A DNA stretch of 9,532 nucleotides from a virus (IMGVR_UViG_2778261577_000002:1-9532); one strand, 5' to 3'. Positions 3,171 to 3,505 are shown, counted from the first letter of the stretch. Numbers and translations: made by a program. Notes: generated by a model not told the origin, from the sequence alone.

Positions 3171-3210
3171 TTAGCTAATAACACGAATCGTGAATGTATA
3201 TAATGCGCTT
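3171..3210 (+). promoter_or_regulatory. Candidate stable-RNA-type promoter upstream of the tRNAs (-10 TATAAT at 3199-3204 followed by a GCGC discriminator)
   Basis: TATAATGCGC resembles the rRNA/tRNA promoter -10 plus GC-rich discriminator, and the upstream DNA is AT-rich. No good -35 at 16-18 bp spacing, so confidence is low. The tRNAs could instead be read from pR'. Confidence 0.3.
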
Positions 3211-3351
3211 GTTCCTTCGATGGTGTATTCGAATAACGGATTACTGAATACAGCTATCCCATTAAGGGAACACCGCCATCTGCTCATCGGGAAGAGCCGA
3301 CCATCATTTAAGTGGTAGGTGTGAGATTCGATACCTCGGTGGCGGTTCTGT

Positions 3352-3427
3352 GCCGACTTAGCTCAGTAGGTAGAGCAACTGACTTGTAATCAGTAGGTCA
3401 CCAGTTCGATTCCGGTAGTCGGCACCA
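3352..3427 (+). tRNA. tRNA-Thr (anticodon UGU), 76 nt with encoded CCA
   Basis: Manual fold: acceptor GCCGACT/AGTCGGC, D-arm GCTC-agtaggta-GAGC, anticodon stem ACTGA/TCAGT with loop CTTGTAA (anticodon TGT), T-loop TTCGATT, 3' ACCA. One A:C mismatch in the T-stem. Resembles the recalled chromosomal thrU. Confidence 0.85.
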
Positions 3428-3430
3428 TAT

Positions 3431-3505
3431 GCGGGTATCGTATAATGGTTATTACCTCAGCCTTCCAAGCTGATGATGCGGGTTCGATTCCCGCTACCCG
3501 CTCCA
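3431..3505 (+). tRNA. tRNA-Gly (anticodon UCC), 75 nt with encoded CCA; glyT-like
   Basis: Acceptor GCGGGTA/TACCCGC, anticodon stem TCAGC/GCTGA with loop CTTCCAA (anticodon TCC), T-loop TTCGATT, 3' TCCA. About three differences from the recalled E. coli glyT, two of them a compensatory acceptor-stem pair. Confidence 0.9.

Follow-up and report, generated by a model that had tools for sequence, protein, structure and literature searches.

A tRNA-Thr(UGU) and tRNA-Gly(UCC) pair in the Q-to-lysis slot of a Rac-type prophage is a reduced form of a widespread lambdoid tRNA array

Introduction

Lambdoid phages can carry tRNA genes between the late antiterminator gene Q and the lysis genes. In the Stx2 phage 933W (NC_000924), the annotated layout runs Q, pR', qut, terminators, the promoter pT, the tRNA genes ileZ, argN and argO, a terminator, stx and the lysis genes. 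Comparisons with 933W in this study rest on that GenBank annotation, because our search for literature on ileZ/argN/argO, or on the tRNAs of LT-II prophages, found nothing usable. Phage 21 (OL657228) similarly has tRNA-Asn and tRNA-Thr(UGU) between tR' and the S21 holin gene. Genes for tRNA-Thr(UGU) and tRNA-Gly(UCC) are also annotated in the T4-like records that we matched, and T4 carries Ile(CAU) and Arg(UCU) as well, which would give it the same set of readers of A-ending codons as the full lambdoid arrays described below. However, these phages are virulent, their tRNA genes stand in another genomic context, and the tRNAs are only about 85% identical to those studied here.

On the E. coli chromosome, tRNA-Thr and tRNA-Gly genes of these kinds belong to the thrU-tyrU-glyT-thrT-tufB operon, and the K-12 operon was our reference for both genes. 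The threonine tRNA has a wider interest, since tRNA-Thr(UGU) is what P2 OLD destroys when restricting lambdoid phages (PMC12445682). According to the same paper, P2 OLD acts against lambda by cutting off the anticodon arm of tRNA-Thr(UGU) of the host, and the tRNA-Thr of phage 21 protects against this nuclease.

Here we analyse a tRNA-Thr(UGU) and tRNA-Gly(UCC) pair in a viral stretch of 9,532 nt, which we refer to throughout as the window. An earlier note on this DNA had described the pair and proposed that it was a functional, prophage-borne unit. We compared its genes, its surroundings and its distribution with the systems above, and weighed the explanations that have been or could be offered for its presence.

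Results

At its ordinary setting, ARAGORN called two tRNA genes and no more in the window: on the plus strand, tRNA-Thr(tgt) occupies 3352-3427 and tRNA-Gly(tcc) occupies 3431-3505. The sequence between them (3428-3430, plus strand) is TAT, and each gene encodes its own 3' CCA, as the earlier note had read. The ARAGORN drawings and the sequence gave both cloverleafs U33 and a purine at 37. The Rfam model RF00005, which has a gathering score of 29 bits, matched both genes over model positions 1-71 of 71, with 73.8 bits (E = 4e-15) for tRNA-Thr and 67.8 bits (E = 2e-13) for tRNA-Gly. These scores lie outside the pseudogene range, into which the note had said a non-functional pair would fall.

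The window Thr gene was identical to K-12 thrU at 76/76 nt, and it therefore keeps the synthetase identity elements of that tRNA. The Gly gene matched K-12 glyT at 72/75 nt. Two of its three changes, C6>T and G66>A, compensate each other in the acceptor stem by converting C:G to U:A, so that its description as a glyT-like gene with a compensated stem was accurate; the third, C19>T, lies in the D loop. The identity elements for glycine, which we take to be C2:G71, G3:C70, C35, C36 and U73, are unaffected by the changes at 6, 66 and 19. The only non-pairs in the two cloverleafs were Thr 52:62 (A:C) and Gly 13:22 (U:U), both native to thrU and glyT, respectively. The A:C mismatch in the T-stem of tRNA-Thr had been noticed before and is real, but as a sign of divergence it does not stand: because the window Thr is identical to thrU, the mismatch is the native state, and this position was unpaired in all of the 39 distinct alleles considered below.

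On the chromosome, a stretch of 209 nt that includes tyrU separates thrU from glyT, whereas in the window the two genes are fused with a 3-nt spacer. The gene order of the operon is kept, but tyrU and a 116-nt spacer are replaced by TAT, thrT and tufB are absent, and the flanks of the pair are unrelated to those of the operon. Spacers as short as this one also occur within the host operon. Since Thr equals thrU, Gly resembles glyT, and the two come from one operon with their order kept, the capture of chromosomal genes that had been suggested is probably what took place; judged by these alignments, the thrU-tyrU-glyT-thrT operon is the probable source of the Thr-Gly unit.

The window is a Rac-type lambdoid prophage. 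Its genes run in the order DUF1367 gene, YbcO gene, Q-like DUF1133 protein, tRNAs, phage-21-type holin, lysozyme, Rz/Rz1, trkG, ParB-like ynaK and others. In E. coli H2, the best-matching annotated genome, the block lies between ydaT/ydaV/hokD and trkG/ynaK and adjoins ompN and uspF. The gene 5' of the tRNAs (2475..3017, plus strand) encodes a Q-like late antiterminator of the DUF1133 type, which matched Pfam DUF1133 at 1.5e-108, Phage_antitermQ weakly, and PHROG 753, annotated as 'anti-termination protein Q-like', at E = 1.8e-79. A putative late promoter pR' can be read from the sequence at the Q stop codon, at 3014..3042 (plus strand; TTGATT, 17 nt, TGc-TTCAAT). It is followed by a conserved leader block of ~65 nt, reaching to about 3075, which is also found 5' of tRNA arrays in several other prophage contigs (e.g. 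L037, L070), and by a tR'-like intrinsic terminator (3098..3129, plus strand) with a ten-pair stem, including 6 G-C pairs, and then a T run. Relatives have an equivalent terminator ahead of their tRNA arrays, and the annotations of 933W and phage 21 include one too. By its sequence, the stretch 3014-3129, comprising motif, ~65-nt block and terminator, is a candidate for the pR'/Q-utilisation/tR' unit on which DUF1133-type Q proteins would act.

On the 3' side, a terminator scan found a strong intrinsic terminator (3781..3807, plus strand) that closes a structured 300-nt trailer. The lysis cassette then starts (4194..4903) with genes for a phage-21-type holin S (4194-4406, plus strand; Pfam Phage_holin_2_1, 4.6e-35) and a lysozyme (4406-4903, plus strand; Pfam Phage_lysozyme, 2.8e-45). 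The tRNA pair is thus flanked by terminators and lies between the Q/pR'/tR' region and the lysis genes, in the layout of the phage arrays and in the Q-to-lysis slot to which the earlier note had assigned it.

The note had also drawn a positional analogy with the tRNAs of Stx phages, and this analogy has homology behind it. The slot occupied by pT-ileZ-argN-argO in 933W is equal to the slot of the window pair, and a degenerate tRNA at 3272-3348 of the window is homologous to the tRNA at the argN position. The window differs from 933W in several respects: it is without ileZ as the first gene, its position-2 gene is dead, positions 3-4 hold Thr(UGU) and Gly(UCC) rather than argO, the -35 of its promoter is displaced, and no toxin gene lies 3' of the tRNAs. 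With phage 21, the window shares the placement of tRNA genes between tR' and the holin gene, the type of lysis cassette and a Thr tRNA with a UGU anticodon. However, the phage 21 Thr is diverged, with an altered and shorter anticodon stem, whereas the window Thr is host-identical.

Several further features of the prophage were recorded. The trailer (3506-3812) folds unusually well (z-score -3.6), and a 15-nt inverted repeat (3511-3525 / 4026-4040, 14/15 complementary) brackets 3526-4025. We rejected a coding role for 3506-4190, as none of its four small ORFs had a PHROG match and the intrinsic terminator lies inside the longest of them. Rfam gave weak hits to the trailer, which we set aside as chance matches driven by the terminator: the one resembling CyaR scored 23.6 bits where 47 are required, and the rest were also well below threshold. 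Comparison with E. coli H2 showed that the spanin genes (4900-5365) are broken, with a stop at codon 26 of Rz (4975-4977) and a +1 frameshift near 5250-5256 that joins the Rz1 N-terminus to the Rz C-terminus. The insA gene of an IS1 lies at the right edge of the window (9229-9504), and a DUF1971 (TehB C-terminal-like) ORF lies among the early genes (437-799, minus strand). At 7098-8814 lie the ParB-like ynaK and, overlapping it, a gene for a protein with a TET-associated glycosyltransferase domain (PF20691, 1.4e-34), and these two may together form a DNA-modification module in the prophage.

The interval 3171-3351, ahead of the Thr gene, had been taken for promoter and leader. It does contain a -10 motif, but it also holds a hairpin and a pseudo-tRNA that had been missed. 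The motif, a TATAAT hexamer with a GCGC discriminator (3199..3208, plus strand), sits 147 nt upstream of the Thr gene. It aligns with the -10 of 933W pT, of which it is the positional equivalent, and with the PhiR47_1 promoter, and it is kept in the LT-IIb prophage copy. The reading of this motif as a stable-RNA-like -10 therefore stands for the hexamer and discriminator but not for a complete promoter: there is no -35 at 16-18 nt from TATAAT, a consensus promoter scan called no promoter there, and the ancestral -35 (TTGTGC, 3161-3166) is now 32 nt away. As the local promoter has lost the -35 spacing of the full arrays, expression of the pair in the lysogen is uncertain.

Downstream of the motif, a hairpin-forming leader predicted by folding (3210..3271, plus strand) occupies the place that ileZ has in full arrays. 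Its stem resembles the ileZ acceptor stem, but we rejected an ileZ relic at 3205-3271, since local alignment with ileZ scored no better than shuffled sequences (13 vs 12.3 +/- 2.1, not significant); neither ARAGORN nor Rfam called a tRNA in this interval.

The hairpin is followed by a degenerate tRNA-Lys(UUU)-like element (3272..3348, plus strand), which ARAGORN reported only at -ps80. It is homologous and colinear with the position-2 tRNA of full arrays (argN/Lys/Arg), to which it is ~75% identical, with a local alignment score of 53 against 13 +/- 2.2 in shuffles, a score reached by 0/2000 of them. We nevertheless rejected it as a working tRNA. It has C8, A33 and an A53:C61 mismatch, so that U8, U33 and G53 are missing, it is without CCA, and it gave no Rfam tRNA hit even at E <= 10 in a 161-nt search; its homologue in PhiR47_1 scored 40.4 bits on the Rfam tRNA model. 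Among its close relatives, one has an 8-nt deletion (L059) and others keep G53. On these features, the element at 3272-3348 is classed as a pseudogene.

We counted array types among about 120 cassette copies from IMG/VR contigs. Thr-Gly alone accounted for 57 copies, Ile(CAU) ("Met"(CAU))-Lys(UUU)-Thr-Gly for about 40, and Ile(CAU) ("Met"(CAU))-Arg(UCU)-Thr-Gly for 15, and the spacer was TAT in 120/122 copies. Full arrays have a conserved promoter, TTGCAR, 17 nt, TATTAT, followed by a G+C-rich discriminator. This promoter and the CAU gene differ very little from what 933W has annotated as "pT putative tRNA promoter" and as ileZ, and the second gene of the arrays is homologous to 933W argN. The window pair is the surviving 3' half of such a four-gene array, Ile(CAU)-Lys/Arg-Thr(UGU)-Gly(UCC), which is common in enterobacterial lambdoid prophages.

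Unusual array members were seen at a number of loci. At L003 (2502-2578) and about 40 other IMG/VR loci, U33 is replaced by C33 in the position-2 Lys(UUU) of the full arrays; this tRNA has G39-U40-U41 in place of the AriB site U39-C40-A41 of host tRNA-Lys and still scores 40.4 bits as a tRNA. The LT-IIb prophage KU052038 (L004, 1122-1194) has a thrU body with a UCU anticodon, annotated as tRNA-Arg, and L074 and L117 have a thrU body with a UUU anticodon, plus A26G. In L128, from Enterobacter hormaechei, the 5' acceptor strand of the Thr gene is that of ileZ (GGCCCTT), and the gene looks like a deletion chimera of ileZ and Thr via the common TTAGCTCAG D-arm.

We searched for the Thr-TAT-Gly junction with a 55-nt probe and found it at 1018 places in 851/5426 complete E. 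coli genomes, in which the copies are annotated as tRNA-Thr and tRNA-Gly. Species-representative genomes with the cassette were those of E. coli, Shigella flexneri, E. albertii, E. ruysiae, Citrobacter braakii and Enterobacter hormaechei. The cassette also occurs in induced phages such as vB_EcoS-683R6 (ON470595), with the order Q / tRNA / holin / trkG. The exact version in the window (3100-3600) was present in 38 genomes, which are uninformative on constraint because they are at least 99% identical over that stretch. Thus, the Thr-Gly pair is an ordinary example of an already annotated, widespread kind of lambdoid-phage tRNA cassette, here in reduced form.

The wider family of copies was more variable. 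The Thr gene was identical to thrU in 73/136 copies, and most variants differed in the D loop only. The Gly gene was identical to glyT in 54/122 copies, and about 55/122 carried C6U and G66A together. Across 39 distinct 154-nt alleles, 94% of the alignment cells at paired positions were paired, compared with 24-53% when the partners were slid, and both acceptor stems were 100% paired. At Gly 6:66, the pair was U:A in 23 alleles, C:G in 13 and U:G in 3, while Gly 48:64 was G:C in 37 and A:U in 2. This pattern is that expected of working tRNAs and argues for purifying selection on Thr and Gly, although gene conversion with the chromosomal copies, rather than selection, could maintain the identity of Thr to thrU. 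With full-length model matches and fully paired acceptor stems, the two genes are functional-looking copies and not fragments, in line with the earlier note, and by their sequence they are bona fide elongator tRNA genes.

It had been proposed that the pair may supply tRNAs for the codon usage of late genes or morons, with ACA and GGA enrichment in the late genes and trkG as a check. We compared the 12 coding regions of the window (2159 codons) with a host baseline drawn only from the five flanking host genes of strain H2 (2087 codons). ACA made up 44/133 (33%) of Thr codons in window genes and 16/118 (14%) in the flanking host genes (p = 3e-4), and GGA made up 28/150 (19%) and 10/154 (6%) of Gly codons, respectively (p = 0.0016). 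ATA among Ile codons (23% vs 4%, p = 2e-5) and AGA among Arg codons (15% vs 3%, p = 0.005), which are the codons read by the array members lost from the window, were also more frequent in window genes. The A-ending codons enriched in the prophage are thus exactly those that the full array decodes. In trkG, the proportions were 32% for ACA, 31% for GGA and 36% for ATA. The predicted enrichment was therefore found. At about threefold for ACA and GGA, it fits codon supplementation, but by itself it is no proof of a benefit, and because the host already has thrU and glyT, any benefit of the pair would be one of dosage only.

Discussion

We consider it fairly probable that the tRNA pair of this Rac-type prophage, a reduced array in the lambdoid slot, supplements ACA and GGA decoding. 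The pair would be transcribed as one precursor, either in the lysogen, from the nearby degenerate -10, or once the prophage is induced, by Q-modified polymerase passing the flanking terminators. RNase P and 3' exonucleases would split this precursor into two tRNAs. In mature form, these would raise the supply of decoders for ACA and GGA, both of which host genes use rarely and the prophage genes, trkG among them and richer in A+T, use more often. The analyses above show what the genes are, that they are intact, where they lie, how they are related to other arrays and that the codons are enriched; expression, processing, charging and any effect on fitness we infer.

It is possible, though in our view unlikely, that the pair is instead a neutral passenger, captured from the chromosome and persisting in a decaying prophage without a currently selected function here. 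Inactivated spanin genes, a disrupted promoter architecture, a dead upstream half of the array and an IS1 at the window edge all speak for this, and the near-identity (at least 99%) of the 38 genomes with the exact version leaves them silent on constraint. With two array positions dead, Rz/Rz1 broken and the prophage decaying, the tRNAs may no longer be under selection in this genome. However, lesions have accumulated in the Lys-like neighbour and none in Thr or Gly, an observation from one lineage, and stem changes across the wider family are mostly compensatory. Both points speak against neutral persistence.

A role in counter-defence, in which prophage tRNAs replace host tRNAs cut by tRNA-cleaving defence nucleases (P2-OLD, PARIS), seems doubtful for the window pair. 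The idea has precedent, as PMC12445682 names tRNA-Thr(UGU) as the main target of P2-OLD and reports that cells are rescued by Thr(UGU) tRNAs of phages, that of phage 21 among them. The targets of AriB are Lys(UUU) and Thr(UGU) (PMC12409363), and full arrays have both of these side by side; moreover, the position-2 Lys(UUU) of relatives is without the U39-C40-A41 cleavage context of the host tRNA. A few cassette alleles carry G42U/C with U43C, which unpairs 27:43 and 28:42 and changes the CNG motif. The window Thr has the UGU anticodon of the targeted host tRNA, but its cleavage motif and stem are unaltered: matching thrU at 76/76, it has both CNG motifs unchanged, an anticodon stem of the full 5 bp and an intact AriB site. 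According to the P2 OLD paper (PMC12445682), resistance needs a change in the CNG motif plus a shortened anticodon stem, and over-expressed host tRNA-ThrU protects little or not at all. Because it is identical to thrU, the window Thr is predicted to be P2-OLD-sensitive and non-protective. The Lys-like element of the window fails the tRNA model, and no report of a nuclease that acts on tRNA-Gly(UCC) came up in our literature search.

The doublet G42U/C and U43C recurs in the Thr genes of L011, L016, L031, L033, L119 and L134, where it alters the CAG (CNG) motif, and it resembles the published P2-OLD resistance rule. These alleles may simply be damaged, some being left unannotated by PGAP. They are also rare, and we rejected the notion of common resistant Thr alleles on the basis of exact-allele BLAST, which found the CATC form in 14/5426 E. 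coli genomes and the CACC form in 0/5426, numbers too low for counter-defence to be a general role of the cassette.

A broader version of this idea, which we think improbable, is that Thr(UGU)-bearing lambdoid arrays have been shaped by the Toprim tRNA nucleases (P2 OLD, PARIS) of rival P2-like elements. The window Thr would then represent the ancestral sensitive state and the Lys-like element a resistant decoder or decoy. If this were true, 3272-3348, with its A33, remodelled anticodon stem and lack of an AriB site, would not be a dead gene but a non-canonical decoder or a decoy.

Attachment sites often lie at the 3' ends of tRNA genes, a general precedent for the integration target that the earlier note had raised, with the tRNA genes serving as attB for another element or compensating for a host tRNA disrupted by integration; within this window, however, that role is effectively refuted and we give it almost no weight, since a search of the window for the 3' end of tRNA-Gly, with up to 3 mismatches allowed, matched the gene itself and nothing else, and no integrase lies in the window or the 24-kb H2 locus. 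Lysogeny that depends on phage tRNAs is known in mycobacteriophages (PMC10865867), but genomes with the cassette, which match at two places per record, keep the chromosomal thrU-glyT locus, a copy of which is present in 5421/5426 genomes.

Codon supplementation by a reduced array remains our preferred reading of the pair. The window adds one well-documented case of lambdoid prophage tRNAs for A-ending rare codons, and in this respect it changes little. About 16% of complete E. coli genomes have an extra prophage copy of tRNA-Thr(UGU), and the common Thr-Gly pair that provides it is a shortened version of the array known first from the annotation of the Stx phage 933W.
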